Shown in pieces: positions 8,317 to 62,064 of a stretch of DNA of 64,000 nucleotides. How positions within the stretch are numbered: position 1 is the first letter of the stretch; each line of letters begins with the position of its first letter. Made by a program: the position numbers and the translations under genes. The stretch lies in contig JAWKSP010000001.1 in NCBI GenBank assembly GCA_041389025.1, positions 128,002 to 192,001 of the forward strand, read 5' to 3'. Below the pieces are notes generated by a model that was not told where the DNA came from, searched no databases, and saw only the letters and a program-made list of their open reading frames with translations. Source of the DNA: Minisyncoccota bacterium. Its GTDB lineage: Bacteria > Patescibacteriota > Minisyncoccia > Phycocordibacterales > UBA918.

Positions 8317-8348
8317 ACCATTTTTTTGAGATAAGCCACCAAACACAA

Positions 8349-32321: not shown

Positions 32322-32323
32322 AA

Positions 32324-32866
32324 CTAATTTTCTTGATCATTTAAAGTAACAGCGATAGAAAAGTCTATATCGCGATCTTTAGCTAAGTTTGAAATAGGTA
32401 AATCTACTTGACTAACTTTTGATAAAGATAATAAATTATTTCTAAAATCAGACAAATCTTGCCTAGTCTTGGCTTCACCCATAAGTTGAACCGAATTCAA
32501 CTTTAAATCTGATCGATTAAACTGCATACTACTAATGGACAAACCATTATTTTGAAGAGAGTTAAAACTATCAACTAAATCAGAAAACTTCTTAATACTT
32601 CTAAGATTAATCAACACTTGTGCTTGATTATTGGCTTTAACTAAAGATTGTTGCGCATTGTCAAAATCAGCAACTTTAGTAGCCATTTCATTTACCTTAT
32701 TTTCATAAACCCCAATTTGTGAATCAATCAACACATACACCGGAAGCAATAGAAGTGAAACTGAAATTAAAACCACACTAAGAATAAAAATCCAAACCGA
32801 AGTTACTCTGATCCAGTACTCAGTCACAACATTTTTCTTTGCTTCTGGTGGTAGTAGGTTAATCAT
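32324..32866 (-). CDS. pilN: Type IV pilus assembly protein PilN
   Basis: Starts MINLLPPEAKK (INLLP hallmark) then TM helix. Confidence 0.7.
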   Translation of the reverse strand: MINLLPPEAKKNVVTEYWIRVTSVWIFILSVVLISVSLLLLPVYVLIDSQIGVYENKVNEMATKVADFDNAQQSLVKANNQAQVLINLRSIKKFSDLVDSFNSLQNNGLSISSMQFNRSDLKLNSVQLMGEAKTRQDLSDFRNNLLSLSKVSQVDLPISNLAKDRDIDFSIAVTLNDQEN

Positions 32867-32870
32867 AATA

Positions 32871-33971
32871 TTAAACGGTATTTTTTATAGCTAAACCAAT
32901 CGCTGTAGCATAGCCATATGAATAGCGTTTTTCAATTGGTGGTATCATAAGCGAAGTGTCAAAAGCATTTTCCCAGACATTACCCCGAAAACAGGGCACT
33001 CCCAAAACCTCAGTCAAATAATCTGGCAACCCACGTAAATTAACACTACCACCACACATTACTATTCTTTTAATTTTTCTCGACTTATCTCCATCAGTCC
33101 TTTGGTGCCAGTATTGCATCCGTAAAGCAATTTCGTCTTTTATTATTGATACCACCTGTATAAGAGACTCAGCAATTCGATCGTCATTTATATCTCCCAC
33201 TAAACCATAGGTATTTTTTATATTAGTCAGTTCTTTTTCCGATGTATCATTGCCAAGAACTTTACGTAGAGCTTGTGAAAGTTGACCACCACCAACATCG
33301 ATAGTCGAAGTGTATAAAAGAGACTCTCCAATCACAATACCGACTCCGGTTCTAGTCTTACCAAAATCAATAAGCATTACCACATCATCCTCATAAGATT
33401 TTGATACAACCGAACGAGCCATTGCTTGGGCCTCAACTTCAAATGAAAGTGGGGTTAGACCAGCTTCAATACAAACCTCGTGATACTTCATTACAGTTTC
33501 TTTTTGATAAGCCGACACAACAATGTTAGTAACATTATTCTTTCCTTTATTTTCTAATACATCATAATCAAAAATTGCATCTCGAGCTGAAATTGGCACG
33601 TTTTCTTCCAACCTAAATTCCAACAAACTCCTGACTTCATCAGCCGGTACATCAGTTTTTATTTCTGTTTCAAAAATATAAGTTTTTTCTTCTGGTAAAG
33701 AGACTCTTATGTATTCTGCTCCGGTTTGTTTTTTAAACTCTTTCAATACGTTGACCATAGCCTTCTGATCAACAATCTCTCCTCTTTCTAAAACACTGCT
33801 TGGTATATCTATATCACCCCATTTATCTAAAATTCTAAACCGATCGGTTCGTAGCGACGGTTTAAAAGAAACATACTTCATAGAAGTATCCGATATATCA
33901 ACCCCTACTCCAGCCATAGACAGATAATTTGGTGGCGGTAAAATTTTTGAAAAAGCTGAAAAGACACTCAT
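32871..33971 (-). CDS. pilM: Type IV pilus assembly ATPase-like protein PilM (actin fold)
   Basis: 366 aa; ...VMLIDFGKTRTGVGIV...HVVVGGGG... actin-like motifs. Confidence 0.75.
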   Translation of the reverse strand: MSVFSAFSKILPPPNYLSMAGVGVDISDTSMKYVSFKPSLRTDRFRILDKWGDIDIPSSVLERGEIVDQKAMVNVLKEFKKQTGAEYIRVSLPEEKTYIFETEIKTDVPADEVRSLLEFRLEENVPISARDAIFDYDVLENKGKNNVTNIVVSAYQKETVMKYHEVCIEAGLTPLSFEVEAQAMARSVVSKSYEDDVVMLIDFGKTRTGVGIVIGESLLYTSTIDVGGGQLSQALRKVLGNDTSEKELTNIKNTYGLVGDINDDRIAESLIQVVSIIKDEIALRMQYWHQRTDGDKSRKIKRIVMCGGSVNLRGLPDYLTEVLGVPCFRGNVWENAFDTSLMIPPIEKRYSYGYATAIGLAIKNTV

Positions 33972-38244: not shown

Positions 38245-39198
38245 ATGAAAATATTTAAAAATAGCTGGTTATTAGGGTTAATTACCATAAGCCTACCATT
38301 TACTACCTCAGCCGCTTGGCTGGACAACAAACCAGTCAAAGATATTCCTGTACCAGTTTTGTTTGGAATAGATTTAAACAAACTAATTCCTGATTTTGGT
38401 GACTCACGTGGTGGAGGGACTCGATTACACGAAGGTCAAGATATGCGCGCACCTAAAGGGACTCCGATTATCTCACCAACAGATGCTATAGTCAGAAAAA
38501 CCGGAGAAGAAAATAGCGCAGGTAAATTTGTCTATACCGATAACCCAGGTGGAGAGAATTTCAGATATATGCACTTAGATACAATAGAAGTTAAAGTTGG
38601 TGATAAGTTAAAAGCTGGAGACTTAATCGGTACTGTCGGCGACACAGGAAATGCACCAGATGGTGTTTATCATTTACACTTTGAGATAAGAAAAGACCGA
38701 AAAGCGACCGATCCTTTTCCTAGACTCGTAGACAGCTATAACCTAAAAGAAAAAATGGCTTTACTTGATAGTATTTTTGACGATATAAAAGATGAAGATG
38801 GACTAGCAGAAATTTTGGTAAGTAATTTTTCAGACCTGTTTCAGATTGCTCTAAATGAAAATTATGATTTACCCAGAGAACTAGAAAAAGAGTTAACTAA
38901 CCAGAAAATTACCTCCACAGCAGATTTATTAAAAACACTAAATGAATTAATAGACAAAATCCCTATATTACTAAACATGGAATTAAATATTGGTGATGAA
39001 AACATTGCTGTTTCCCTTCTACAAACCTATTTAATATTTTCAAGTAATGGCCCAAACAAAGAACTATTAGCCAACACTGGAGCTACTGGTTACTTTGGAC
39101 CTTTAACCAAAGACGCCATGGTTGAATATCAAAAAAATAATAGCTTACCTCTCACTGGCATCTACGACCAAAACACTCGTTTAAAAATGATTAAATAA
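38245..39198 (+). CDS. Secreted M23-family peptidoglycan endopeptidase with C-terminal peptidoglycan-binding-like domain
   Basis: HEGQDM (HxxxD) and YHLHFEIR (HxH) M23 motifs; signal peptide. Confidence 0.75.
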   Translation: MKIFKNSWLLGLITISLPFTTSAAWLDNKPVKDIPVPVLFGIDLNKLIPDFGDSRGGGTRLHEGQDMRAPKGTPIISPTDAIVRKTGEENSAGKFVYTDNPGGENFRYMHLDTIEVKVGDKLKAGDLIGTVGDTGNAPDGVYHLHFEIRKDRKATDPFPRLVDSYNLKEKMALLDSIFDDIKDEDGLAEILVSNFSDLFQIALNENYDLPRELEKELTNQKITSTADLLKTLNELIDKIPILLNMELNIGDENIAVSLLQTYLIFSSNGPNKELLANTGATGYFGPLTKDAMVEYQKNNSLPLTGIYDQNTRLKMIK

Positions 39199-47289: not shown

Positions 47290-47625
47290 GATTATTTTTT
47301 TGATTGATTGTATCGTACTTATTATCTATCCTCGTACCACCATAAGGTTGGTAGTTTAGTAACTGATTTAAGTATCCGGTTTGATCGGTAACTTTGGTAG
47401 TAGAGTTTAAGTGATCTTGGTGGTTGTAGTATGTCTTGGGTGCTGGTGTATCTGCTTCTATGGTAGCTACTAGAGTATGGTTGGTGTAGATGTGTTTGGT
47501 AATGTTCCCATTCTTTAGTTCGTAGTTGGAGAATGGGTAGAGGGTGGTGTTGGTACCGGTGGTTTTGGAGACTCTTTGACCGGTGTGGTCGTAGGTGTAG
47601 GTGGTGGTGTTAGATACCTCGATTT
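47290..47625 (-). repeat. Truncated Rhs core-repeat remnant (no toxin tip), 4th copy of the 3' core homology
   Basis: About 95% identical to 54980-55270, 49460-49750, 51670-51950. Confidence 0.75.
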
Positions 47626-48011
47626 TGTTTTATTGGTCTATGTACATGTACACCACCTCCTACATAAGGATCATAATACTTTTCACACTCAAAGCATTTC
47701 CATCCACCTCTACTATTCCAACGTTGAAGATGTATATGTTTTTTTGAACCATCAAGACATTTTTGACAAAACGGCACATTATCTCCCTTCTTCCAATACA
47801 ACCCGTTCTTTAAGACAAAATCATGTTTAGTAGCAAGTTCCAACTTCAGAGCCTGATTTTCTTCTTTTAGAGCAATATTCTCATCTTTAATTGAAACAAT
47901 AAACTCACGCAAGCTTACTATCTTTTCTTGCAGATCAAGAGTTGCTGATTTTTTAACCAGCTCGGTGATACTTTCCAATATTGACTTTGCTTCTGAAAAA
48001 TTCAAATTCAT
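47610..48011 (-). CDS. Coiled-coil + zinc-ribbon hypothetical protein
   Basis: CQKC...CFEC pairs. Confidence 0.35.
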   Translation of the reverse strand: MNLNFSEAKSILESITELVKKSATLDLQEKIVSLREFIVSIKDENIALKEENQALKLELATKHDFVLKNGLYWKKGDNVPFCQKCLDGSKKHIHLQRWNSRGGWKCFECEKYYDPYVGGGVHVHRPIKQNRGI

Positions 48012-48055
48012 GTTTTTATATTTTACTATCTACATATATTTACCTCAACTTAACA

Positions 48056-48352
48056 CTACCACTTTAACCTTTCTTTCAACTCCAAAACCCTATCTGAAAG
48101 TAACAAAAAAATATCATTTTTAAATTCAGTATTACAACCAAAGGATTCAATAAAAATACCAGTGAGTTTTTCTGTGAAAATTACTTTTTCATTATCCTCC
48201 TTTAGCAAAGAGACTATTTTGATTACCTCATCATAATACTCATCACCCGGTGCCCCGCCTCCGATTAAGTTGACTGGATCTAATTCATTGACAATCTCGT
48301 GAATGTTTTTAAATACAATTTTATATAAATTCATACAACACAATTGAATCAA
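48056..48352 (-). CDS. Hypothetical small protein, candidate immunity protein for orphan CT at 48653..49396
   Basis: Position only. Confidence 0.35.
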   Translation of the reverse strand: MIQLCCMNLYKIVFKNIHEIVNELDPVNLIGGGAPGDEYYDEVIKIVSLLKEDNEKVIFTEKLTGIFIESFGCNTEFKNDIFLLLSDRVLELKERLKW

Positions 48353-48711
48353 TCGCTTTCAAACTTTGCAAACTCATGCATTTTAATCTTTGTTAAAAAC
48401 TCAACAAGGTTGTCGATGTCCGATTTTGAATCTTTTGAAGAGATTTCATCCTTCAATCGTTTAAGTTCTTCAACAACAAAGGTAATTTGAATTTCATTGA
48501 AATATGTATCCTGATTAGGGTCTACACATCTCAAGAGTGGATATTTTGATAAATCACGTGCATCATTCCACATTTCTTCAATCAGGAAATCATACCTATT
48601 ACCTACTTCTAATCTGTTTTGGTTTTCATCTATTTTTACTAATTTCATACGTTTATTTTTCTTTATTATTGTAACGAGGCTTGCCCGGATGCGCTGTAAC
48701 CAAATCACCAT
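48349..48711 (-). CDS. Hypothetical small protein, candidate immunity protein
   Basis: Immediately downstream of orphan CT, overlapping stop/start. Confidence 0.4.
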   Translation of the reverse strand: MVIWLQRIRASLVTIIKKNKRMKLVKIDENQNRLEVGNRYDFLIEEMWNDARDLSKYPLLRCVDPNQDTYFNEIQITFVVEELKRLKDEISSKDSKSDIDNLVEFLTKIKMHEFAKFESD

Positions 48712-49805
48712 TTTTTCTTGTAACCACTGTTACAACATTAGTGCCTTTACCAGATACCGCATCATATCCTATAGAACGATCCAACTCTACAGATCTAACT
48801 ATATTTCCATTTTTCTGTAAGACACCCTTTTGTCCATTAACGCTTTTTATTAGACTTGTAATTTCATCGGCGTTATTAAAATAACTATCTTTACCAAGAC
48901 TAAACTCACTTCCACCTATAGTATGTCTATTTAATACATGATTTTTCCTACTCTGAGAAATACTTACATTCGAAGCAGTTCTTAATGAACCAGTAGTAAC
49001 ATTCTTCACAACCTTCCCGCCACTCATCGACATACCTACCACAAAAGCTTTCTCTCCCACAGAAGCATTTGGATCTGCTAAGGTAGCTACACTGTCTCCC
49101 ACACTGCTACTTAGTAAAGCGCTATTTGTTATCGCAATACTGGCCGCTATTATTTCAGGTGCATAAATAACCAATGGTGCGGCAGCAAACCAAAAGAACT
49201 CCCCACCCTCATCAACATACTTAATCGGATTATTCGCCGTATAACTATAAGTGTTTTGTGACTGTGGACTCTTTAGATAATAACCTAATTTATTGTTGGT
49301 TTTATCTTGGACTGTTTTCCAATCTCCTAGAGCTAACGACACCGGATCCTGAGAAGTGAAGCGACCAGTATCCCCTGACTGGTAGCGTGCACCCATATAG
49401 GAAAGACTAGTCTCCTCATCATAATCATGCCCTGTATACCTCTTAGTTTGATTGATTGTATCGTACTTATTATCTATCCTCGTACCACCATAAGGTTGGT
49501 AGTTTAGTAACTGATTTAAGTATCCGGTTTGATCGGTAACTTTGGTAGTAGAGTTTAAGTGATCTTGGTGGTTGTAGTATGTCTTGGGGGCTGGTGTATC
49601 TGCTTCTATGGTAGCGACTAGAGTATGGTTGGTGTAGATGTGTTTGGTAATGTTTCCATTCTTTAGTTCGTAGTTGGAGAATGGGTAGAGGGTGGTGTTG
49701 GTACCGGTGGTTTTGGAGACTCTTTGACCGGTGTGGTCGTAGGTGTATGAAGTGGTTATTCCTGCTTTTGTGGACTCAGTTAGTTCGTTGCGGTGGTTCC
49801 AGGTG
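48653..49805 (-). pseudogene. Orphan Rhs C-terminal cassette: ~480-bp core-repeat fragment (49325-49805) + distinct toxin tip ORF 48653..49396 (begins MGARYQSGDTGRFTSQDPVSLALG)
   Basis: Core fragment nearly identical to 54855-55325 of the main rhs gene; tip contains ...NHVLNRHTIGG... putative nuclease-like motif. Confidence 0.7.
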
Positions 49806-49809
49806 TTCC

Positions 49810-50433
49810 TTATTTTTTATCTAACACGCTCTCACATTCACCACCAACACCTATATAATTTAACTCATTATTATTTTCATTGTCAGAAATAAACCAATAT
49901 CTTATAAAACCAACAAAAAAACTTACAGACAATAACAAAATACTAACTATTAGATGAGGAATTCCAATAAAAATAATAAAATAATAATTAGTAATAAATG
50001 TTATAAAGAAAATAACGATCAAAATATCAGTTATTTTGTGAAAAAATACTGATTTATAATAATTTTCTTTGAGTATTCTATTTACTTCCATTTTATCTAA
50101 CGAAATAGTTGTATTTTTTGAAATAAAATTTATACGCTTTGTGGACAAAGTATAAGTAACTATCGCACCAAGCAAAAAAGGAAACACCCAAATCAAAAAA
50201 TATTTTACAGCTTCATCTTTAACAATAGGCATCAGAGTAAATAGTCCTGCAATAGTAATTAACACACCTTGTCTAAGAGTAAAATCAGATAGATATCTTT
50301 CAATACGAATATTTTCCTCAGCATAAGATACAGAGTCATTATCATCAATCAATTCACCTAATGCGTTTAAACTTAATACACCAACTTCATGTTGAAGCTT
50401 ATTTATCTTAATCATTAATTCTTCCTTGTTCAT
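49810..50433 (-). CDS. Hypothetical multi-TM protein (candidate immunity for CT at 50888..51427)
   Basis: 207 aa, 4 TM. Confidence 0.35.
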   Translation of the reverse strand: MNKEELMIKINKLQHEVGVLSLNALGELIDDNDSVSYAEENIRIERYLSDFTLRQGVLITIAGLFTLMPIVKDEAVKYFLIWVFPFLLGAIVTYTLSTKRINFISKNTTISLDKMEVNRILKENYYKSVFFHKITDILIVIFFITFITNYYFIIFIGIPHLIVSILLLSVSFFVGFIRYWFISDNENNNELNYIGVGGECESVLDKK

Positions 50434-50483
50434 ACACCCAGGTTATACGTTTACATTATAATCTACAAAAATTATAGTTTATA

Positions 50484-50882
50484 TTATTTACCATAAACTA
50501 AAGTGTTGAATTTAGACCAAACACTATCTTGAGAACCATTTTCTATATGCTTCTGACACCATACGTAAGGGAATATCGTCTTTCCATTAGTCAATGTTAC
50601 AGGAAAAGTATCTTTGCCAAATTCTTGATGATCTCTAGACATGTCTATAAAAAAACCTTTTTTTTCAATAACTCTTGAGATATACATAGCCATTTCGAGA
50701 GCAATACCATTTAACCCTTCATTGTTGCCAGTTTGCATAAAATCATCATGGACAAGAGATAATATTTCATCAACATGTTTTATAGACTCTACTGAATAAT
50801 CAAGCTTATAGTCAAAATCTTTACCAATTTCAACAGCTAATTCCACTAACTTCTCTCTCATTTTTTGTAATTCTTTTTCCAT
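50484..50882 (-). CDS. Hypothetical protein (candidate immunity)
   Basis: 132 aa directly downstream of orphan CT. Confidence 0.4.
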   Translation of the reverse strand: MEKELQKMREKLVELAVEIGKDFDYKLDYSVESIKHVDEILSLVHDDFMQTGNNEGLNGIALEMAMYISRVIEKKGFFIDMSRDHQEFGKDTFPVTLTNGKTIFPYVWCQKHIENGSQDSVWSKFNTLVYGK

Positions 50883-50887
50883 AATTA

Positions 50888-51955
50888 TTACTGGTTTAAT
50901 TCCTTTCTTGTTACTTTTGCACCTGTGTTATCTAGAGATTGTTGTAGTGGCTTTGATAATTTTGTAGTAGGTCTGGTAATTAATTCCATTGTGTAGCCGT
51001 TTTGTTTTGAGTATTCAGTAAAAGCACGTAGCTGAGCTGTATTTGATTGATACTTTACATTTTTTACTTCTTGCAACGTTTTTGTTTGATGATTCAAACC
51101 ATCAGGTATTCGTTGCTTACCATTTCCTTTAATCAAATCTGGTATCTTCTCTGTATTTTTTTGTATACCAGACACAACTTCACCTATAGACCCTTTTCTC
51201 CTTACGTCAGCCAACTTATCGGCAACATTTCCAACAACCTTCCCTCCCGCCTTCACTTCTCCCGCAGGACTAGCAAACAAAGCAACAGCGATAGCTTTGT
51301 CTCCCAAAGAAGCATTCGGGTCAGAAACAGTTTGTCCGGTAGTATATGCATCATAAGCTGTTAACCCAGCCATCACTGCAGCTATAGCTAACGGGATAAT
51401 GTTTCCGTTAGGATCTGAAATAATCATTGGATTATTTCTAGCGTAACTATAAGTATTAAACTGCTGAGGATCTCTAAGGAATACATCTAACGGTCGACTG
51501 TATGTATCTTCCCAACTTTGTGCACCTAGGTCAAGGTTAGCTTGGTCTTGACTGGTAAATCTGGCAGTCTGTCCATTTTCATAACGACTACCTAGATAGT
51601 TTAATCCAGTCTCTTCATCTTTGGTTTCACCTAGATACTGACGGTGTTGGTTTATGCTTCCATACTGTTCATCAATTCTAGTGTCTCCAAACGGTTGATA
51701 GCTTAGTAACTGATTAAGGTAACCATCTTTGTCGGTGACAGCATTGGTAGAGTTTAAGTGATCTTGGTGGTTGTAGTATGTCTTGGGGGCTGGTGTATCT
51801 GCTTCTATGGTAGCGACTAGAGTATGGTTGGTGTAGATGTGTTTGGTAATGTTTCCATTCTTTAGTTCATAGTTGGAGAATGGGTAGAGGGTGGTGTTGG
51901 TACCGGTGGTTTTGGAGACTCTTTGACCGGTGTGGTCATAGGTGTATTTTACTTA
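50888..51955 (-). pseudogene. Orphan Rhs C-terminal cassette: core fragment (51660-51955) + distinct toxin tip ORF 50888..51427
   Basis: Core homology to main rhs; tip unrelated to the other two tips. Confidence 0.65.
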
Positions 51956-51957
51956 TA

Positions 51958-52398
51958 TTACTTAATATCGGTAACTGGCTTCACTTCAACATTTTTACCA
52001 GTAAACTCAGTGTTTACACGACGAGTAAGACGACTATCGTCAGTGAACACAACAATTTGCTCTGTCGGATCAAACAGTCTCTCAATCTTTTGGATAGTAA
52101 ACATATCCAATACAGTATGAATAGTGGCAAGAATAGAAATATCACCAAAGCCAGTCATGTTAAAAAATGATCTACCTCCATGGATATTAAGCATACGTTT
52201 ATAGTGATTTAAGTATAACACTTCGTCAAATTCATCAATAACAACAATCTCTGATATTCCTACCGGAATACTTTGACTATGAACAAGCTGTGCCAACTCA
52301 ACCTCTTCGATTACATCAGGCACTAAATAATAATCCTCAGTCAGAGAGATTTGTCTATCAAAAATATAAGAAACGCCATTTGTGTCAATTAAATTCAT
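51958..52398 (-). CDS. PIN-domain protein (VapC-like nuclease)
   Basis: MNLIDTNGVSYIF (Asp5), ...IVVFTDDSRL (Asp cluster); 4-nt ATGA overlap with upstream gene. Confidence 0.6.
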   Translation of the reverse strand: MNLIDTNGVSYIFDRQISLTEDYYLVPDVIEEVELAQLVHSQSIPVGISEIVVIDEFDEVLYLNHYKRMLNIHGGRSFFNMTGFGDISILATIHTVLDMFTIQKIERLFDPTEQIVVFTDDSRLTRRVNTEFTGKNVEVKPVTDIK

Positions 52399-53592
52399 AT
52401 ACCAAGTTCTTTTCGATACTTACGAAACCCTTTCTTATTTACAGCACCGAAAATCAAGTACTGTGCTTGTGTACTTGATAGAGTCTTTGAACGGATACCA
52501 GTATTTATTGTCTTAAATGATTTACTACCACAAAACTTTCTCACTGACGTAGAAATATTTGGTGACCTAGCATGATTTTTTGTCTTCTTAGATATAAATG
52601 GAGGAGGTTTTAAAGTTTCAAATTCTTTCTTAGTCAGAATTCCTCTCATACGAAGCGTAATAATGAGTGCCAATGGAGATACTTTAAACTTCAAAGCAAG
52701 TTGGTCTCTCTTTGTAGTAGTAACTTCTCGTCCACGTAGTTTTTCAGTCTCATTCACAGGCATAAGTAGTTCAGCTGTAATGGCGTGGATTCGTGCTGAC
52801 ATTTTTTGTGATTTCATAAGCTTTGCTTTGAAATTTTTCTCAAGTACATAGTCGTATTGATCAAGCCCAATTACCACCAAAAGATAAACAAGTGTGTAAA
52901 TCTGACGACTCTCAACTTCGTCAGGATTAACTTCACTCGGAAGAAAAACAAACGGAATTTTGTCATCTTTGATAGCAAAACCGCTAGTGTTTTTATACAC
53001 ATCATTACCAACCACTTGGTGATTAGGTAGAATCTTGTTTGTCAGTACACCACGAGAGACATTGACTGATTTTTTGATTAACTTTTTCAATCAGATATTC
53101 GAGAGCCGTTCCCTTTCCTGTATAATTCCAGAATTTATCTCGGTCTATTTCAAAGTGTGTCAGGATTTTATTGACTGCATTTTGCAGTCTTAGTCCCTTA
53201 AGTGAACCACAAAAAGGATTTAGTGGTAACGTACTAACTGAAGTGATGTAGTTCTGCTGACGAATAAGTCGATCAATGATGCGTTTAGAAGTAACATCGC
53301 CAGCACCTTTACGCTTCGCAACAAGCTTTCTTGACACCTTATGCTGACGCTGTGCCTCAATATGATTAATGGTGGTATTAAGATTAGCTGGTGTCAGGAG
53401 AAACATCTGCCACGGAATAAGAATTTTCTCGCTTTCCTCCCTAAGTTCGTACAGTTCTATGCTGCCAGTAGCGAACGCCTTTTGAAATACTGGTCTACTT
53501 ACTAGCTCCTCTTCTGGATACAGCTTAAGAACACGTTCGACAACGCCATCATAAATCTCTGTTGAACTTGTTCCATTAATAACAACCCACAT
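52395..53592 (-). CDS. Hypothetical ~410-aa protein apparently split by a frameshift at an A6 run (ORFs 53023..53592 and 52395..53090)
   Basis: The two ORFs overlap by 68 nt in different frames across CAAAAAATCAG; C-terminal part has a weak ImmA/IrrE-like helix (SPLALIITLRMRGIL). Confidence 0.4.
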
Positions 53593-53751: not shown

Positions 53752-54219
53752 TTATCTGGTAGAATTCACTAACTTTGTAATTTTTAATTCAACTGAACCT
53801 GCCCCCATCATATTATCTTGAGGATACATCTTTAACTCAGAATTTTCATTTAAGTCATACTTAACTTCCTTAACAAACTTCATTGTTACGTCATCATAGT
53901 AAGATAAAAAAATCAAACCAGCCTCATCGTCTATTCTCATCAATGGCGGCATAGTCCATTTTTCTCTATCCCAGTTTTCAATCTTTTTAACCACTGACCA
54001 AGAATTCTCAATTAAACCTAAATCACCAAATTTTCCAACTAGAATTGCTTTTTCTGGTTCTAATTTACTTAAATCAGCGTCTGGTTGAAAAAAGTAACCA
54101 AAGATTTTACCTTTTCTATCCATTCTAGCTATAACCCCATATCCATTTCTTCCTGAATCATCACGAAGTGGAACACTAACTATGTCTCCTTCCGAATAAT
54201 TAATTTTTGCATCTTTCAT
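53752..54219 (-). CDS. Hypothetical protein, candidate cognate immunity protein for the Rhs C-terminal toxin
   Basis: 155 aa, starts 19 nt after rhs stop. Confidence 0.45.
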   Translation of the reverse strand: MKDAKINYSEGDIVSVPLRDDSGRNGYGVIARMDRKGKIFGYFFQPDADLSKLEPEKAILVGKFGDLGLIENSWSVVKKIENWDREKWTMPPLMRIDDEAGLIFLSYYDDVTMKFVKEVKYDLNENSELKMYPQDNMMGAGSVELKITKLVNSTR

Positions 54220-54237
54220 ATAGCTAATATATCAGAT

Positions 54238-57200
54238 TTAATTAGCCGCGTCTTCGTATTCTTTCTTACGAGGATTCTGGTTACTAATCGGTTGCTGCTT
54301 GTTCAAGCCTCCATTTTCATATTTAGCCTCTGGATGTTGATCATAGATCTTTTGTTCTTGACCTCGTTGCGTTGCGTAATCATCTGTTCTTCTGTTAACC
54401 TCAAAATCATAATCTCTTGTTTCAGGATTTCGCGCATGTTCGTATTCACGTCTCTCAAGATTATTGGTTCTACCAGTTCTTACAACCTTTCCTGTTTCAC
54501 TGTCGATGAGTTTATATGTTCCACCCACAGCTTCAACAGCCTCATCACTATACTGAGCAACCCTCCTTAATGATCCAACTCCTACAACTCCAGGCACAAG
54601 TGCTCCACCAGCATCAAGAGCCAGGTTAGTTGCTTCACCCCTTACATCACCACCAGTCAGAATTGCTTCACCTAGTTTATAAGCACTGTAAGCCGTGAAT
54701 CCAACATCAACAACGATATCTAACCATTCTCCATTTTTATCTTGATATTTGAGTGGGTTGTTAGCTGTGTAACTATAAGTATTTTGGGCTTGTGGGTTTT
54801 TTAGATAGATATCTACTGTTGAATCCATTTTATCTCTCATCAGCCCAGGACTACCCAAAGCTAACGACACCGGATCCTGAGAAGTGAAGCGACCAGTATC
54901 CCCTGACTGGTAGCGTGCACCCATATAGGAAAGACTAGTCTCCTCATCATAATCATGCCCTGTATACCTCTTAGTTTGATTGATTGTATCGTACTTATTA
55001 TCTATCCTCGTACCACCATAAGGTTGGTAGTTTAGTAACTGATTTAAGTATCCGGTTTGATCGGTAACTTTGGTAGTAGAGTTTAAGTGATCTTGGTGGT
55101 TGTAGTATGTCTTGGGGGCTGGTGTATCTGCTTCTATGGTAGCGACTAGAGTATGGTTGGTGTAGATGTGTTTGGTAATGTTTCCATTCTTTAGTTCATA
55201 GTTGGAGAATGGGTAGAGGGTGGTGTTGGTACCGGTGGTTTTGGAGACTCTTTGACCGGTGTGGTCATAGGTGTATGAAGTGGTTATTCCTGCTTTTGTG
55301 GACTCAGTTAGTTCGTTGCGGTAGTTCCAGGTATTAGTAGTACTACCGTCTGTTAGGAGGTTACCGTTTTGGTCATAGGTGTGGGTGGTACCTCCGATGG
55401 CGGTGGCAGCGTGTGGGTTGGCGTAGTTGGTACCAGTGTCTCCTTGGTAGGAGTATGTTCCTTGATCTGATTTAGTAAGGATGTTTCCTATACTGTTGTA
55501 TGAGTAGGTTTCACTGTATGGGGTGGTGCTGGCGCCCGTGGTTGAGGCGGAAGTCAGGCGATATAGATCATCGTAGGTGTAGGTAATAGTACCAGCAGAG
55601 TCTGTCTCACTATTGTCTATTATTTGAGTAATGTTACCGACAGTGTCGTAGGTGTAGGTGAGATTTTGGACATTCTCAACAAAGATTGGAAGAGTTGGAG
55701 TGGTGGTACTGGTGGTAGTACCGGCCGCTAATGAGAAAGTAGCCGTCTCAGTACTCCACTCTCCTTCTGTGTCACTGTCATCCCAGAATTTTATACGCCA
55801 GTGGTAGGTGGTGCTGGAAGCTAGTGGTAAACCACCATATGTGATGTCGGCAGTTCTGTTTCCTGCTGTTACTTGACTGACTAGCGCAGTCTTTGTACTA
55901 TCCCAAATATTGTTGGTGAAAGCAGTTGAAGTTGATACTTGGAGTTGGTAATGAGTTGCCGTATCTCCTGTATCTGGGTCATTGTATATAGCTGTGAATT
56001 CTGGTGTGTTGTCGGTGATATCTGTCGGATTGGTTTGTCCTTCTGTTTCAAGAAGTGTTGGTGCAGTTGGGGTGGCGTTGGTTGGTGGTGGAGGTATATT
56101 TCCTGTTTCATAAGTTGCATATATTGAATGTAAGGCGTGACCAGCATCAGTACACGATGGACTGTTTGGTGCTAAAAAACTATTAGTATGGTCAAATATT
56201 TCATGTACACCATAAGCAAAATCTAGCTTAATATCAGGATAACCCTTAGACACTATGGTAAGAGCATAGTTTGTATTTGGATTAATTGACACAGGTATTT
56301 CAAAAACACTTTCCGTCCAAGCAAAATTTGTTGGAATATTTGCAGACACACCAACTCCATCAGACACAATTCCACAGGTATTTGTATCTATTACAACTCC
56401 TTTGAATTTATCATTGCTGTAATACTTTCTTGTAAAAAAATTTATACCAGTGACAGTAGTAGCGTCTGACGGACTAGTGTATACATTGCCAATCATCCAA
56501 TTATGTCCAACATAATCCGTATAGGCACCAACAGAAGTATTGCCAAAAGTCGGATCCACAACCACTGGATAAGTTGCTGTTTCTAAGAAGTTTTGTGGGA
56601 CAGTAACAGAGAGCATTCCCTCTTTATAATCTAATTCTCCCCATACCTCTTCACCATTGGCGTCTTTAATTTTTGGTCTATATATATGATAGACTTTTCC
56701 GGTAGCATAATTTATCTCTCCTTTTACATGATTCTTCTTAGTCTTGTGGTATACCGCATAACTACCAACTATATTTTCTGCTCGCTCCAGGGTTACTCTA
56801 CCACCCTCATCAATACACTTCGTTTCCGTACAAATCTCTCCTTCTCCAAACAACCCTTCAAGTGAAACTGGTTGATAAAAGAAATCAAGATCCTCATATC
56901 CATCAATTTCAAACTCAAATACATTGGTGTCCGGTTTTTCGTCCAAAATCACTTCGATTTCAAACCCTCCATCTTCCATTTGCTCAGTGGCAGGCAACGG
57001 ATAAGCATGTATTCTTTCTTTCTTGTCTTTGTCTTTCCATTCAACTACATCAGTTCCTAAAATATTTTCCCCTTGCCCTTTTACTTTGTTGTATCTAACA
57101 CCAAGATCAATTTCTCCTTTCCATTTGTGAAGACGTACCTCGGGATGGGTTTTCTTTAGAATAACTTTATCTTTGTTCTTATTATTTTGTATTAAAAATA

Positions 57201-60200
57201 AGCTATCATCACCTTCAATGTACTTACTTTTCTTATCTGAGTTATTAATTTTATCTATTACATCTAAAATTATGGATGTTTTTGTCTCTGGTAAGAAAGT
57301 CCTATTTGTATTAGGTTCATGTACAGATACAGTATAATTCTCGTCAGTGGAGGTAGATATTATTTCGATACTTTCTGACACACCAATAGTTGTAATCAAC
57401 TCTTCAACGTACATATCTTCATCAGTAACCACTGACCCAGTTCCAGCCGAAGTGGTAGTAGTTGCAGTATCAGATAGTGATGTAGTAATGTCGGAAGAAG
57501 TAGCGATTGGCTCATCCACTGTTTCTACCACCATCTCTTCTTCGGTTGACGGAGCTATAGAGTCAGTAGTCAAAGCATCTAGCTCAGCCTCTATGGTAGC
57601 CAACTCTTCACCCCCATTACCGGTACCGTAAGTACTGGTAGCAGTAGTGAGGATATTTTTCAATCGGTACAGTTCGGTCGCGTCATAAGTACGAGTAGTT
57701 ATAGAGCCGTTGCCGTATTCGATATTTTCCATCTGACCATGCGGCCCATAATCAATATCACTGACGATATTTGCAAAAGTTCCCCCACTCTCTCTTTGTT
57801 CCACTTTGTCTACCTGACCACCTTTATTAAAGATGTACTTAACTTCTGAGTTATCTGGATAAGTAATGAGTGTTTGGTTGCCTTGGCGATCATACTGGTA
57901 GCTAGTGGTATAGGTATTACTATTTATTGTTTTAGCTTCTGAAGCCAAAAGATTATTTGGAGTATAAGTGTAGTTAGTGGTAGCCGAAGAATTAACGGCG
58001 GTACAAAGCTGTCCCACGCCACCCGTACAAGTGTCGTAGGTATAAGTAATTTCTGTACCAGCTTGTCCGGTGTAGTTCTCGGTCAACTGACGATTGAGAG
58101 CGTCGTAGGTGTAGTTGGTAGTCTGACTCTCTGGATCAGTCTTGCTGGTTAGGTTGCCGGCATTATCGTAAGCAAAAGTCCAAGTACCAAAAGTACTATC
58201 ACTCGGTGCATGCAAGTCCTCCAAGCTAGTACGCCGACCAAGCGAGTCATAACTTATATTTCGCACATTACCTTCCGCATCAGTTATCTTGGTCAAGTTA
58301 CCAAGATTATTCCAAGTGTAGCCTGTGGTATATGAATTGGTTCCTTCGTTTTCAGTCACGGCTACCAGTCGACCAAAAGCATCATATTGGAATTTCTTAT
58401 CGTTGCCAGCGGTATCGGTAACAATTTCTTTCCATTGGTCATAAACTGTTTCAGTTGTACCGACCACAGTCTCCACTGAAGACACCCTGCCAACCGGATC
58501 ATAGTTGAAAATACTTAAAAGATTATTGTTGGTAGTAGGTACACTTCTTGCTGAACCGGTATCAAAATACCGTAAAGACTCTTTGGCCAAAAGACCATTA
58601 TCACCATAAACGTAATCTTTCACTACATACTGATTACTTTCTTCCGCTTCTTGTCTTTCTTGTATCTTTCGACCAAAACCATCCAAGAATGTGTATGAAT
58701 TTTTAACCAAACTGCTGTTTAGATAATTTTTCTTTTGCACGCTGACACTGCCAACCGTATCGGTGTAGACATACTCAGTTTGTACTACCGGAGCGCCGGT
58801 CTGTGGGTCAGGTAATGTAACAGTAAGTGGTCGGCCAAATCCATCGTAAGTAGTGGCAAAAATATTTCCATTAGCGTCGGTAGTAGTCGCTACTTGCCCG
58901 GAAGAATAATCATACTCATACTGTGTAGTCTGGTTGAGAGAGTTGGTGACACTGGTCGGATATAAGTTGTATGCATCGTAAGTGTAGTTAGTGGTGTTAC
59001 CGTTTGGATCAGTCTCGGCTGTTACTAGCCCTAGACTGTTGTATGTCCATTGTTTGTTTATATAGTTGCTACCACCTAACCAATTTTCTTCTTTGGTCTT
59101 ATTACCTAGAGTAACCGTACCAAGTGGTTGGTTATCGTAGTAGAAGAGAGACTCTTGGACTTTGGTGCCGGAGTTGTCGGTCAAGGTTTGTTTGGATGGT
59201 AGTACCATACCGCTAGCATTAGTAGCATACTCAATAGTCGTTACTTGTTTGTCGGTACCAGTATCTGAGAAAGTGCCATCAGAATTACCATTCACCTCTC
59301 CCCACTCGGTTTTTGTGAGAAGTGAGCCGTTGGTGTTGTTGTATGTATAGCTGTTGGCCGAAGCTTTTTTGTCGCTATCACCATCGTAATCAAGCTTAAG
59401 GTCACTCTCTAATTTTAAAAATATATTTCCACCACTAAGTGAAGTGGTAGAAAAATTGTTATGAGAGAGTGCATAAATATTATCTGAAAAATCGTTTACT
59501 TCACTACGATACACTTGGCCGATCAAAAACTCGCCATCTACCCTCTCTTCAGATGTGGTTGAGACCCCGTTTCCTTGATGGTAATAATTTACTTCTTTGT
59601 TTAAACTGGTGATCTTAGAGACTTCACCAAAACCAGAAAACTTGCGTTCGTATATATTATCTGCATCGTAATAAAAATCAGCTTTTTTATAATCATAAAC
59701 CTCAATTTGTACATCACCAAAATTTGAACTCATCTCCTTACTGGTTACCACCACGGGGTTAAATCTTGGTTTTCCAATTTCTTGATAATTCACCCGTCCA
59801 TCTTCCAAATAACCACTATATGAAACTTCAATATTTCCAGATTTTGAAGAAGAAATAAGAGAAAGTTGATCGGGAACAATTTGATCATTTAATTTTACCG
59901 AACCACCACTTGTATGCACTTCATATAAATCATTGAATTCCAAATCCAAGATATCAACAATAGTATCTCCGTCTATATCTACAAAAGCTTTTCCATAGTT
60001 ATGACCACTATAACTATGAGTTAAGAAAAAAGGTAAAGAATAACTTTCTTTTTTCCAACCATTTCCGGTATTAATGTATGTTTCAGCAAACTGCTGACCA
60101 CTATAATACAGTGATTTAACTATATCGGGTAATCTATCACCATTAATATCAACTAAATTATAACCTGTATTAGGAGAACCAGTACTTTTTATGTAAAAAT

Positions 60201-62064
60201 CCACAGGTAAAATCCAATCGGAACTGGTAGCCCAACCATTTCCGGTATTAAGATACACGATTCTTTCGTCTATTTCTGGATTAAATTCTTTTCTATCATC
60301 CTTATAACCTCTAACAGCATCAATTAACCCATCACCGTTAACATCTATCAATCTAGTACCCATATCTGAAAAACTTTTCCATCCGTATCTACTAGATTTA
60401 TTCCCTAAAGGAACCGGAAAATATAATTCTGAATCTTCCCAACCCTGACCGTTATTTAATGCTACTGATGATCTTATATTTTCAGGAACAGAACCATTCT
60501 CAAGCGAAATAAACTCAGAGGTTATGATGTCTGGTAACCCATCACCGTTCACATCTGCGAATGTTCTTGCTGAGTTTGCAAACTTAGAATCAGGATAATA
60601 CCACCAAGTAAAAGACAATAATCCAGTCCAATTTGTATCTTTTACAAAACCACTGCCATTGTTTATATAGACACCGTATTGCTCCAAAGGATACCAAGAA
60701 GGGTATTCATAGTATGAAGAAGGTCCGTCGTAGGCTACTACTATGTCGTCTAACCCATCACCGTTCACATCTATCAATCTAGTGCCCATATCGATATATT
60801 GTGTAGGGTTACTTGTGTTGTCTTTTTCTCTAATCGAGAAAGGCACCTTGATATCATCCCAACTCCAATCAACATCATAATCCCATTGTCCGCCACCTTT
60901 ATTTATATGTACTCTTCTAACCAAATGATTCTCCCATGGATATTGATCACGATCAAAGAAGTGGTAGTATCTAACAACATCAATTAATCCGTCTCCATTT
61001 AAATCGCCAAACCTTACTCCGGTATCTTTAGAATTTAAAGGTTCCGGAAAGTTTTCATATTCCGTACTATTCGACCAATCAGGCAATTTAACACCACCAT
61101 ACTCAAAAATAGTTTCCGGTAAAATAACCTCACCTGATTCTCCGTAACCTTTCTCAGTTATACCTAACAACAAAATTCTACTCTCATTTATACCTTCACC
61201 AAATCGTAAATCATAGCTTCTTACTTTTTCATCATTAACGTAAACGCCTATACCTGAAACGTTGTATTTTCTTGTGACTTTAAAGTTTTTATCATATGAA
61301 GTAAATGGAGTTGTGCTTGTCGCCAATGAAAACTTGACCTCGAAAATATCACTATAAGAAATACTTTCTGGATATATCGAGCCGTTACTTTTTACATATG
61401 TATAATTTGTAACATTTCCGTCTTTATCTTCCACTTTTTCTAGCATCCATTTAGCAACCTCGTTTTCGTTACCAGTATTACTTTGACGAGAATTGTCAGT
61501 TAGACCAAAGTAATATTTATTTCCACTTTTATCTCTAACCTCCCAAACATTATCCAGAAAAATATAGGATAAAAAATCTCCTCTCTCTATTCTAGACACA
61601 AATGTGGTTGAGTCGTTAGTAGGAAACAATTCCCCTGATAAGGACGAATAAAAAGTTGATGACGCAATATACAATTTATCAACACCTCTTTTGTTTATAG
61701 TTTCAATAAAAGGTATAGAGGACTTCCAACCATAACCAAACACATCAACGTCACTTGCTTGCTGATTATTGTATGTAAGTTTTAACATTGGTGTATATTG
61801 ACCTCTCCCTTCAGGAAAAGAAAAGTCATATTTATATTCAAAAGCACCGGTAGATAAATTTATCGTTCCACTATTTAGAAAACTTATATCTCTTGACGGT
61901 ATATTGGTAACAAAACCATCTTCATTTGTGTACACGTCAGCTGATGCAAAATTTTCTAAAGGTATAGCAAAAAATAAAAACACAAGCATAAGGCTTGTGT
62001 TTTTATAAAGAAAATTAAAAAACTTACTTTCGGTTTTTGGTTTGGTTAAACAGAAAAAATTCAT
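54238..62064 (-). CDS. Rhs/YD-repeat polymorphic toxin (2608 aa): signal peptide, FG-GAP/VCBS-like Ca-binding repeats, YD repeats, P/T-rich linker + FN3-like domain, Rhs core ending ...GRFTSQDPVSLALG, C-terminal GIY-YIG-like nuclease tip
   Basis: Repeated xDxNGDGLxDxV motifs; dozens of YD repeats (YTYDxxGNL...); core ...YMGARYQSGDTGRFTSQDPV; tip GTYKLIDSETGKVVRTGRTNNLERREYEH fits GIY-x10-YIG...R...E/H pattern. Confidence 0.85.
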   Translation of the reverse strand: MNFFCLTKPKTESKFFNFLYKNTSLMLVFLFFAIPLENFASADVYTNEDGFVTNIPSRDISFLNSGTINLSTGAFEYKYDFSFPEGRGQYTPMLKLTYNNQQASDVDVFGYGWKSSIPFIETINKRGVDKLYIASSTFYSSLSGELFPTNDSTTFVSRIERGDFLSYIFLDNVWEVRDKSGNKYYFGLTDNSRQSNTGNENEVAKWMLEKVEDKDGNVTNYTYVKSNGSIYPESISYSDIFEVKFSLATSTTPFTSYDKNFKVTRKYNVSGIGVYVNDEKVRSYDLRFGEGINESRILLLGITEKGYGESGEVILPETIFEYGGVKLPDWSNSTEYENFPEPLNSKDTGVRFGDLNGDGLIDVVRYYHFFDRDQYPWENHLVRRVHINKGGGQWDYDVDWSWDDIKVPFSIREKDNTSNPTQYIDMGTRLIDVNGDGLDDIVVAYDGPSSYYEYPSWYPLEQYGVYINNGSGFVKDTNWTGLLSFTWWYYPDSKFANSARTFADVNGDGLPDIITSEFISLENGSVPENIRSSVALNNGQGWEDSELYFPVPLGNKSSRYGWKSFSDMGTRLIDVNGDGLIDAVRGYKDDRKEFNPEIDERIVYLNTGNGWATSSDWILPVDFYIKSTGSPNTGYNLVDINGDRLPDIVKSLYYSGQQFAETYINTGNGWKKESYSLPFFLTHSYSGHNYGKAFVDIDGDTIVDILDLEFNDLYEVHTSGGSVKLNDQIVPDQLSLISSSKSGNIEVSYSGYLEDGRVNYQEIGKPRFNPVVVTSKEMSSNFGDVQIEVYDYKKADFYYDADNIYERKFSGFGEVSKITSLNKEVNYYHQGNGVSTTSEERVDGEFLIGQVYRSEVNDFSDNIYALSHNNFSTTSLSGGNIFLKLESDLKLDYDGDSDKKASANSYTYNNTNGSLLTKTEWGEVNGNSDGTFSDTGTDKQVTTIEYATNASGMVLPSKQTLTDNSGTKVQESLFYYDNQPLGTVTLGNKTKEENWLGGSNYINKQWTYNSLGLVTAETDPNGNTTNYTYDAYNLYPTSVTNSLNQTTQYEYDYSSGQVATTTDANGNIFATTYDGFGRPLTVTLPDPQTGAPVVQTEYVYTDTVGSVSVQKKNYLNSSLVKNSYTFLDGFGRKIQERQEAEESNQYVVKDYVYGDNGLLAKESLRYFDTGSARSVPTTNNNLLSIFNYDPVGRVSSVETVVGTTETVYDQWKEIVTDTAGNDKKFQYDAFGRLVAVTENEGTNSYTTGYTWNNLGNLTKITDAEGNVRNISYDSLGRRTSLEDLHAPSDSTFGTWTFAYDNAGNLTSKTDPESQTTNYTYDALNRQLTENYTGQAGTEITYTYDTCTGGVGQLCTAVNSSATTNYTYTPNNLLASEAKTINSNTYTTSYQYDRQGNQTLITYPDNSEVKYIFNKGGQVDKVEQRESGGTFANIVSDIDYGPHGQMENIEYGNGSITTRTYDATELYRLKNILTTATSTYGTGNGGEELATIEAELDALTTDSIAPSTEEEMVVETVDEPIATSSDITTSLSDTATTTTSAGTGSVVTDEDMYVEELITTIGVSESIEIISTSTDENYTVSVHEPNTNRTFLPETKTSIILDVIDKINNSDKKSKYIEGDDSLFLIQNNKNKDKVILKKTHPEVRLHKWKGEIDLGVRYNKVKGQGENILGTDVVEWKDKDKKERIHAYPLPATEQMEDGGFEIEVILDEKPDTNVFEFEIDGYEDLDFFYQPVSLEGLFGEGEICTETKCIDEGGRVTLERAENIVGSYAVYHKTKKNHVKGEINYATGKVYHIYRPKIKDANGEEVWGELDYKEGMLSVTVPQNFLETATYPVVVDPTFGNTSVGAYTDYVGHNWMIGNVYTSPSDATTVTGINFFTRKYYSNDKFKGVVIDTNTCGIVSDGVGVSANIPTNFAWTESVFEIPVSINPNTNYALTIVSKGYPDIKLDFAYGVHEIFDHTNSFLAPNSPSCTDAGHALHSIYATYETGNIPPPPTNATPTAPTLLETEGQTNPTDITDNTPEFTAIYNDPDTGDTATHYQLQVSTSTAFTNNIWDSTKTALVSQVTAGNRTADITYGGLPLASSTTYHWRIKFWDDSDTEGEWSTETATFSLAAGTTTSTTTPTLPIFVENVQNLTYTYDTVGNITQIIDNSETDSAGTITYTYDDLYRLTSASTTGASTTPYSETYSYNSIGNILTKSDQGTYSYQGDTGTNYANPHAATAIGGTTHTYDQNGNLLTDGSTTNTWNYRNELTESTKAGITTSYTYDHTGQRVSKTTGTNTTLYPFSNYELKNGNITKHIYTNHTLVATIEADTPAPKTYYNHQDHLNSTTKVTDQTGYLNQLLNYQPYGGTRIDNKYDTINQTKRYTGHDYDEETSLSYMGARYQSGDTGRFTSQDPVSLALGSPGLMRDKMDSTVDIYLKNPQAQNTYSYTANNPLKYQDKNGEWLDIVVDVGFTAYSAYKLGEAILTGGDVRGEATNLALDAGGALVPGVVGVGSLRRVAQYSDEAVEAVGGTYKLIDSETGKVVRTGRTNNLERREYEHARNPETRDYDFEVNRRTDDYATQRGQEQKIYDQHPEAKYENGGLNKQQPISNQNPRKKEYEDAAN

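Follow-up and report, generated by a model that had tools for sequence, protein, structure and literature searches.

A probable TcdB/TcaC-type polymorphic toxin locus with a GIY-YIG-like tip and an Imm26 partner in a Minisyncoccota genome

Organization of the rhs locus

The DNA analyzed here, a stretch of 64,000 nucleotides (nt) of contig JAWKSP010000001.1 from a Minisyncoccota bacterium (hereafter, the window), carries on its minus strand a giant rhs gene, an immunity gene of the Imm26 family directly downstream of it, and three further copies of the 3' part of the rhs core. An earlier note, made from the letters of this DNA, had described a secreted protein of 2608 amino acids (aa) as an Rhs/YD polymorphic toxin with FG-GAP repeats. 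Its open reading frame (ORF) was found to be uninterrupted over 2608 codons from an ATG start, and its product was 100% identical to the NCBI entry 'MAG: FG-GAP-like repeat-containing protein [Candidatus Paceibacterota bacterium]' (P0155; MAG, metagenome-assembled genome), which is encoded on a contig of 622,966 bp. The reduced genome that the earlier note had supposed fits this 623-kb contig. The NCBI entry begins at Met26, 25 codons inside the 2608-aa ORF, and is therefore 2583 aa long. The upstream ATG at 62064 adds a Lys-rich n-region (61990-62064, minus strand) that gives a more canonical signal peptide than the Met26 start. The coordinates of all features are collected in Table 1.

Table 1. 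Features of the rhs locus and other genes of the window (AF2, AlphaFold2; pLDDT, predicted local distance difference test)
Feature	Residues or length	Coordinates	Strand	Basis or remark
rhs gene	2608 aa	54238..62064	-	NCBI version 2583 aa
Signal-peptide-like N-terminus	aa 1-43	61936..62064	-	Read by eye from sequence
SpvB domain	aa 171-228	61381..61554	-	Pfam PF03534, E 1e-8, 35.2 bits vs cutoff 22
FG-GAP/integrin-like beta-propeller	aa ~350-705	59950..61017	-	Pfam FG-GAP_3, E 2.8e-14
First RHS/YD block	aa ~900-1480	57625..59367	-	Pfam RHS_repeat, TIGR01643, YD motifs
S/T- and acid-rich linker	aa 1481-1599	57268..57624	-	32% S+T, 21% D+E
All-beta insert	aa 1600-1995	56080..57267	-	No Pfam match; AF2 model pLDDT 78, all-beta
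Ig-like module	aa 2004-2109	55738..56055	-	Pfam Ig_Rha78A_N, E 3e-14
Second RHS block and Rhs-associated core	aa 2125-2447	54724..55692	-	TIGR03696 match; ends NNPLKYQDKNGEW
Gly/Ala-rich hydrophobic pre-toxin linker	aa 2448-2510	54535..54723	-	Read from sequence
Predicted GIY-YIG/Tox-URI1-like nuclease domain	aa 2511-2608	54241..54534	-	Family profile, fold, residues
Immunity gene Imm26	155 aa	53752..54219	-	Pfam PF15428, E 5.3e-7, 30.3 bits vs gathering score 23.3
Orphan A		50888..51947	-	Core fragment, diverged core end, Tox-REase-7 (Pfam E 4.4e-24)
Candidate immunity gene of orphan A	132 aa	50484..50882	-	Position only: 5 nt after orphan A stop
Orphan B		48653..49804	-	Core fragment and different C-terminal toxin; weak Pfam Ntox50 match, E 0.0067, below cutoff
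Candidate immunity gene of orphan B		48349..48648	-	Position only; likely start internal ATG 48648, 5 nt after toxin stop
Remnant C		47299..47599	-	Truncated core fragment, 98.3% identical to 54975-55275, no toxin module
Matrixin-like peptidase		7363-8346		Window gene
NlpC/P60 protein	646 aa	28189-30129		Window gene
PilM and neighbouring (type IV) pilus genes		31306-33971		Window genes
M23 peptidase with peptidoglycan-binding domain		38245-39198		Window gene

The assignment as an Rhs/YD polymorphic toxin with FG-GAP repeats was upheld by domain searches against Pfam and NCBIfam and by the presence of six DxNGDxxxD motifs. As read from the sequence, the N-terminus consists of a Lys-rich n-region and the hydrophobic segment LMLVFLFFAIPL, then FASA followed by D, and looks like a Sec signal peptide. 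With this signal-like segment (called by eye) and the SpvB domain, followed by the FG-GAP propeller, the domain order of the TcdB/TcaC-type export class is present in the protein. The six DxNGDxxxD motifs lie at aa 354, 432, 504, 574, 639 and 696, a spacing of ~70 aa that marks the blades of the propeller, and a 42-nt direct-repeat family (D2) coincides with the same region.

RHS repeats were recognized by Pfam RHS_repeat (PF05593) in nine stretches (E 1.4e-33) and by the NCBIfam model YD_repeat (TIGR01643; E 2.3e-22), and simple patterns detected ~20 YD motifs, where 'dozens' had been claimed earlier. In phmmer searches, the first RHS block aligned with the solved Rhs shells 7q97, 8qja, Tse5, Tse15 and Tre23, and aa 2222-2404 aligned with the C-terminal ends of two solved Rhs shells, 8h8a and 9ifo. 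The phmmer matches of the whole protein also took in solved bacterial teneurin-like proteins, but neither TcB nor TcC chains were amongst them at E<=1e-3.

The two RHS blocks are separated by an interruption of ~650 aa, composed of a linker, an all-beta insert and an Ig-like module. The P/T-rich linker and FN3-like module described earlier were both recovered in modified form, in that the only proline-rich linker is a short one at aa 1985-2010, the others being S/T- and acid-rich, and the module is present but belongs to the Pfam family Ig_Rha78A_N. The all-beta insert (~400 aa) is common to only ~10 of the 120 closest homologues of the protein. Foldseek searches with its model returned nothing below E 1e-3, and the weak matches were to the tail tip of the mycobacteriophage Bxb1, a lectin-like domain, CBM6 and the SdrD/E adhesins of the MSCRAMM (microbial surface components recognizing adhesive matrix molecules) type. 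Within the insert, which probably serves as a binding module exposed at the surface, the motif YPVxVDPTFGY is strongly conserved.

In TcB-TcC structures, TcB contributes SpvB, the FG-GAP propeller and RHS repeats, and TcC contributes RHS repeats, the core and a variable tip. Judged by domain order, the window's protein is TcB-like over aa 1-1480 (SpvB, propeller, RHS) and TcC-like over aa 2125-2447 (RHS plus core), so that the insert may lie outside the shell, where the TcB/TcC seam would be.

The end of the Rhs core had been placed at DPVSLALG. The Rhs_assc_core model (TIGR03696) matched aa 2346-2445 over model positions 1-75 of 76 (E 2.7e-14; 53.4 bits against a cutoff of 32.5), and because the model reaches aa 2445, the end of the core was moved to ...NTYSYTANNPLKYQDKNGEW (NNPLKYQDKNGEW) at aa 2447. 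DPVSLALG (aa 2397-2404) is instead the first of two DP motifs, and the identity with the downstream orphan B stops right after it. Of the features expected for aspartyl-protease autoproteolysis, which in Rhs toxins frees the tip within the shell, the conserved DP...NNPxxxxDxxG layout was seen in the core.

The C-terminal tip and its family

The tip that follows the core comprises 161 aa (aa 2448-2608) in place of the 130 aa proposed earlier, and consists of a Gly/Ala-rich linker of ~63 aa and a nuclease-like domain of ~100 aa. A word-indexed search with the tip returned eight relatives, amongst them three located behind Rhs core ends (P0001, P0004 and P0005), one behind a HINT domain (P0003) and one standalone protein from Gimesia (P0006). 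An exhaustive profile search collected 891 clusters at 50% identity with E<=1e-3, 614 of them with E<=1e-10. In nearly all of the 118 family members examined, the domain ended 0-10 residues from the C-terminus, and the other carriers of the family included proteins with SpvB, FG-GAP, RHS and Ig domains (P0012), with RHS and PT-HINT (P0014), and with FG-GAP, SpvB and TcdB_midN (P0061). This C-terminal placement on varied carriers suggested that the family behaves as a polymorphic-toxin tip.

The segment GTYKLID...RTGRTNNLERREYEH, which the earlier note had fitted to a GIY-YIG layout, corresponds to aa 2515-2543. The residues G2514-G2515-x-Y2517, R2529-T2530-G2531, R2539, H2543, R2567-G2568-x-E2570, N2588, N2597 and Y2603 were near-invariant in the family, with Y2517, G2531, R2539, R2567-x-x-E2570 and N2588/N2597 kept in 89-100% of its members and the tyrosine of YxG replaced by arginine (R2529, giving RTG) in 93%. 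All of these family-conserved residues are present in the window's tip. Apart from this arginine, the residues agree with the signature published for Tox-URI1 (Y, YxG, R, [RK]xxE, N; Zhang et al. 2012, PMC3482391), by which likeness to that family was judged.

Amongst 38 diverse members of the family, 29 gave weak matches to Pfam GIY-YIG (best E 1.5e-5), as did 7 of the 9 members of an earlier set. Additionally, T5orf172 was matched by 12 and MUG113 by 4 of the 38; we take both to be GIY-YIG-related families. When the 38-member profile was searched against PDB sequences, the best two matches were I-TevI (E 0.066) and UvrC (E 0.14), in alignments that placed GGvY over GIY and RTG over YVG, with the R and H positions matched. 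Alignment of the family with I-TevI by hhalign (P 2e-4) covered the same 35 columns; two fragments of the I-TevI sequence used for it match the profile output. A profile of only eight tips had retroviral capsids as its top PDB matches, none of them significant, and these were rejected as spurious.

The AF2 model of the tip (pLDDT 82.5; predicted template modelling score 0.72) has a beta-beta-alpha-beta-alpha-beta-alpha topology. Its top Foldseek matches in PDB were the GIY-YIG domain of UvrC (prob 0.99, TM 0.51/0.58), I-TevI and the GIY-YIG restriction enzyme PD-T4-3, and its named top fold matches in BFVD were all GIY-YIG or intron endonucleases. A nuclease fold of the UvrC and I-TevI kind is thus what AF2 and Foldseek point to. 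The residues, the matches and the model bear out the GIY-YIG-like character proposed in the earlier note, with the exceptions of the arginine in place of the YxG tyrosine and of the tip's own Pfam GIY-YIG score, which is below gathering. Although each test is individually sub-threshold, all agree, and on sequence and model together the tip is predicted to be a divergent GIY-YIG (Tox-URI1-like) domain.

The linker in front of this domain has counterparts elsewhere. Gly/Ala-rich hydrophobic linkers of ~50-60 aa that join the core end (DxxG) to the toxin also occur in orphans A (51200-51427) and B (49000-49200), whose linkers have the motif SDPNAS[LV]G[DE]KA in common, and in the distant homologues P0004 and P0005. 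No Pfam PT-TG match was found in these pre-toxin linkers. The Gly/Ala-rich segment may be a pre-toxin or translocation helper.

The adjacent Imm26 gene

The small gene downstream of rhs, for which an immunity function had been suggested, was assigned to Imm26 above the Pfam cutoff, and the spacer between the rhs stop codon and this ORF is 18 nt. Conservation of the pair was evident in 5 of 5 independent contexts (the window's own Logan contig, a Minisyncoccia MAG, Gimesia, a JGI metagenome and two Logan contigs), in all of which an Imm26 gene lies directly downstream of the tip homologue; the immunity proteins of the five loci were 31-48% identical in alignment. A hidden Markov model (HMM) built from these five proteins also recognized an Imm26-like ORF on the same strand, immediately downstream of the tip, in 15 of 18 genome loci. 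These 18 loci came from Minisyncoccia, Limisphaerales, Sorangium (four), Kiritimatiellales, Acidobacteriota, Planctomycetota, Bacteroidota, Actinomycetota and Sumerlaeota, and were gathered in a genome scan with the 8-sequence tip alignment, the 38-sequence alignment being too diverse. The paired loci span Minisyncoccia, Verrucomicrobiota, Myxococcota, Acidobacteriota, Planctomycetota, Bacteroidota and Actinomycetota, that is, at least seven phyla. In the remaining three loci (L011, L023 and L024), no Imm26-like ORF was detected downstream by the five-sequence HMM; these may carry a different immunity family or, for L024, a partial match. Neither outcome that the earlier note had named as refuting its reading, a tip with no nuclease fold or a downstream partner that is not conserved, was observed.

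The nearest tip homologue, 86% identical, is found on an orphan-type ORF of 228 aa in a Minisyncoccia MAG (JBNLFP010000019.1; L002/L007 2199-3368), with an rve integrase gene near it. Its Imm26 partner is only 48% identical to that of the window, which suggests a faster divergence of Imm26 than of the tip. Imm26 has been described as the partner of Tox-URI1, on carriers that include RHS, HINT and TcdB/TcaC proteins (Zhang et al. 2012, PMC3482391). No experimental characterization of the tip-Imm26 pair was found in the literature searched.

Orphan rhs fragments downstream

In enterobacterial rhs loci, arrays of orphan rhs-CT cassettes let tips be exchanged by homologous recombination. Downstream of the window's Imm26 gene, blastn and translation revealed three further copies of the 3' portion of the rhs core on the minus strand (47299-51947), which the earlier note had not mentioned. 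The core fragment of orphan A (51687-51947) has 93.2% nt identity to 55016-55276, and that of orphan B (49331-49804) is 99.4% identical over 474 nt to 54859-55332. Remnant C runs into a stop codon shortly after ...NKYDTINQ in its translation. The candidate immunity genes that follow orphans A and B gave no significant match in Pfam, NCBIfam or PHROGs. Judged from its sequence, the downstream array has the features of a classic orphan rhs-CT array.

Distribution of the scaffold in Patescibacteria

In a homologue search with the rhs protein, 972 proteins were retrieved at E<=1e-20. The 120 highest-ranking of these are 1.8-3.5 kaa long and almost all have SpvB, FG-GAP and RHS domains. Where an organism is named, it nearly always belongs to the Patescibacteria (Paceibacterota, Nomurabacteria, Ryanbacteria, Doudnabacteria and Falkowbacteria). 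Pfam families beyond these domains vary from one homologue to the next and include toxin families, for example PF15649 (Tox-REase-7, also found in orphan A) and PF00545 (ribonuclease). As the scaffold is common to hundreds of their proteins of 2-3.4 kaa, it is routine for Patescibacteria, and the view that such a toxin is notable for a putative episymbiont is weakened. The idea that the locus is unusual for bacteria of the candidate phyla radiation was likewise rejected, on the grounds of these hundreds of proteins and of an earlier case from Saccharibacteria, where a genome was noted to encode an Rhs/YD polymorphic toxin of 2487 aa next to an immunity gene (PMC6031116). The literature searched contained no study devoted to the Rhs toxins of Patescibacteria.

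Comparison with known toxin systems

The order of signal peptide, SpvB, integrin-like propeller, RHS and C-terminal toxin is that of the TcdB/TcaC-type RHS toxins, and the URI/GIY-YIG tip with Imm26 directly downstream, together with standalone and orphan cassettes, is that of the Tox-URI1/Imm26 systems, both described by Zhang et al. (2012, PMC3482391). The window's locus differs from the set of that study in its lineage (Patescibacteria were unsampled in 2012), in the Arg that replaces the YxG tyrosine and in the ~650-aa interruption of the RHS region. The locus thus fits the combination of TcdB/TcaC-type RHS, Tox-URI1 and Imm26 catalogued in 2012, and what sets it apart is the lineage, the Tyr-to-Arg change and the large variable insert.

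Enterobacterial Rhs loci, such as those of E. coli and Salmonella, show the same arrangement of a main rhs gene, an immunity gene and downstream core fragments of high identity with alternative toxins. Their proteins, however, are PAAR/VgrG-linked effectors of ~1400 aa secreted by a type VI secretion system (T6SS), whereas the window's protein is nearly twice as long, has an SpvB/FG-GAP N-terminus and a predicted Sec-type leader, and lacks a PAAR domain or T6SS context. The closest parallel in this group is the PAAR-RhsA-GIY-YIG protein of Salmonella Livingstone (PMC11669294), in which a GIY-YIG tip was also predicted on an Rhs carrier; such tips have been predicted in Stenotrophomonas as well.

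The TcB-TcC cocoons of Photorhabdus (TcdB2-TccC3) and Yersinia (YenB-YenC2) contain the same succession of SpvB, propeller, RHS, core and variable tip, which the window's version combines in one chain. Unlike in the Tc complexes, no gene for a TcA translocator is present in the window, and whereas the Tc tip is an ADP-ribosyltransferase directed at eukaryotes, the window's tip is a predicted nuclease of the antibacterial type with an immunity gene. Finally, the tip has the tyrosine of GIY, the glycine of YIG and the R, H, E and N positions in common with I-TevI and the N-terminal domain of UvrC (PDB 1mk0/1ln0 and 1yd6). It differs from them in that the identity is only 10-23% and sub-threshold, in having no DNA-binding extension, in the Arg that stands for the second Tyr, and in its predicted use as the tip of a secreted toxin.

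Proposed mechanism and alternative explanations

Altogether, we regard the locus as a likely TcdB/TcaC-type polymorphic toxin locus, made up of an Rhs shell, a GIY-YIG nuclease tip, an Imm26 antidote and spare cassettes. The analysis itself shows its domain content, the family and fold of the tip, the conserved neighbourhood of toxin and immunity genes, the orphan repeats and the lineage of the host genome. We infer how the protein is exported, its encapsulation and autoproteolysis, its substrate and target cell, and that it depends on contact. In the proposed mechanism, the 2608-aa protein would be exported by Sec through its N-terminal signal-like segment. On homology with solved Rhs, TcB-TcC and teneurin-like shells, SpvB, the FG-GAP propeller and the RHS repeats would fold into a closed shell around the tip, while the S/T-rich linker, the all-beta insert and the Ig module would be displayed outside the shell and could bind a neighbouring cell. 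By analogy with other Rhs proteins, the core would cleave off the 161-aa tip at NNPLKYQDKNGEW, and once in the neighbour's cytoplasm, the metal-dependent GIY-YIG nuclease would break down nucleic acid, most probably DNA. As suggested by its family membership and conserved adjacency, Imm26 would bind and block the nuclease in the producer and its kin. Homologous recombination with the orphan core fragments, at nt identities of 99%, 98% and 93%, would permit the tip to be swapped, two of the fragments having toxin and candidate immunity cassettes.

Several observations weigh against this interpretation. Every single GIY-YIG test was sub-threshold: the window's own tip scored 14.4-15.2 bits against Pfam GIY-YIG, under the gathering score of 22.6, the matches to PDB sequences had E>0.05, and no Foldseek match reached E<=1e-3. 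In 93% of the tip family, Arg takes the place of the second signature tyrosine (that of YIG), and with RTG in place of YxG the chemistry or the substrate may differ from those of canonical GIY-YIG DNases. The signal peptide was called by eye only. Additionally, no TcA-like, T6SS or type VII secretion system (T7SS) gene was found in the 64-kb window, where the largest other ORF is 646 aa, which makes delivery into the target cytoplasm the main gap in the proposed mechanism.

To our knowledge, Patescibacteria have no outer membrane. Because of this, and because T6SS, T7SS and TcA genes are missing from the window, one may speculate that the fused TcB-TcC-like Rhs shells serve Patescibacteria as a self-contained delivery device, in which the insert would bind host or prey and the Gly/Ala-rich linker would carry the nuclease across the membrane, so that host nucleotides could be freed besides any role in competition. 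We regard this as a long shot.

The same machine could instead be aimed at the host of the episymbiont, in which case the insert would bind the host surface, the nuclease would free nucleotides, and Imm26 would only protect the producer. A Paceibacterota lineage with a small genome would suit such a use, as would a scaffold that is very common and highly diversified in Patescibacteria and whose middle insert varies amongst homologues (LamG, CBM-like, Ig), few of which have that of the window. The window also encodes putatively secreted enzymes that would act on the cell wall (NlpC/P60, M23 with a peptidoglycan-binding domain, matrixin-like) and type IV pilus genes, which from their sequences would fit an episymbiotic lifestyle. 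However, arrays of orphan toxin-immunity cassettes and an immunity protein that diverges faster than its toxin (86% vs 48%) are hallmarks of conflict between kin or competitors, and according to Zhang et al. (PMC3482391), symbiont toxin tips with adjacent immunity genes act in intraspecific conflict. The same tip-Imm26 pair is also used by free-living Sorangium, Planctomycetota and Acidobacteriota, and no host is known for the Paceibacterota MAG. A host-directed function is therefore unlikely in our view.

Another explanation is that the tip, although folded as a GIY-YIG domain, is no DNase and acts as an RNase, a nucleic-acid binder or an otherwise altered enzyme. The prevalence of RTG over YxG in the family and the sub-threshold level of all GIY-YIG matches are consistent with such a change. 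Nevertheless, the characterized GIY-YIG enzymes are DNA endonucleases, and with the remaining signature positions (Y, R, H, RGxE and N) conserved at 89-100%, a working active site that depends on metal is favoured. The immunity family can be cited on both sides, since Imm26 has been read as typical of immunity to RNase toxins (PMC11669294) but was paired with the URI nuclease Tox-URI1 by Zhang et al. (PMC3482391). We consider a tip of this altered kind improbable. That the protein is mainly a surface adhesin or a teneurin-like structural protein with a vestigial cassette of tip and neighbour, as the weak fold matches of the insert to MSCRAMM adhesins and lectin-like domains and the teneurin-like solved structures amongst the sequence matches might suggest, is scarcely credible given an intact 7.8-kb ORF with intact core domain and tip residues, an intact and tightly linked immunity gene, and a 99.4%-identical orphan repeat that implies recent recombination activity.

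With the locus read as a probable polymorphic toxin locus, the NCBI label 'FG-GAP-like repeat-containing protein' can be upgraded. A Paceibacterota cell with a small genome would then devote ~14 kb to a complete locus of this kind, orphan cassettes included, and the wide occurrence of the scaffold in Patescibacteria bears on how episymbionts compete or interact with other cells. The analysis also delineates a compact subfamily of predicted GIY-YIG toxins, with 891 clusters, Arg for the second Tyr and a partnership with Imm26 across at least seven phyla, and it singles out the all-beta insert, which varies amongst homologues and separates the RHS blocks, as a candidate module for targeting. The locus could in this way open an entry into an abundant and under-studied family of Patescibacteria surface toxins.

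Additional observations in the window

Between the Imm26 gene and orphan A lie three ORFs of 189, 231 and 146 aa on the minus strand (51958-53592), the first two of which overlap by 68 nt. No Pfam or NCBIfam match was found for any of the three, and the 231-aa ORF (52395..53090) gave a weak match to a phage 'transcriptional regulator' (phrog_2439, E 1.8e-5). These ORFs may represent additional immunity genes, or else a toxin-antitoxin or mobile module that has been inserted.

The GC content is 0.42 over the 3' end of rhs (54001-56000), as compared with 0.35 in the flanks and at the 5' end of rhs, and the GC skew switches sign. This shift may reflect the composition of the repeats and the toxin, or a recombinational import of the C-terminal cassette.

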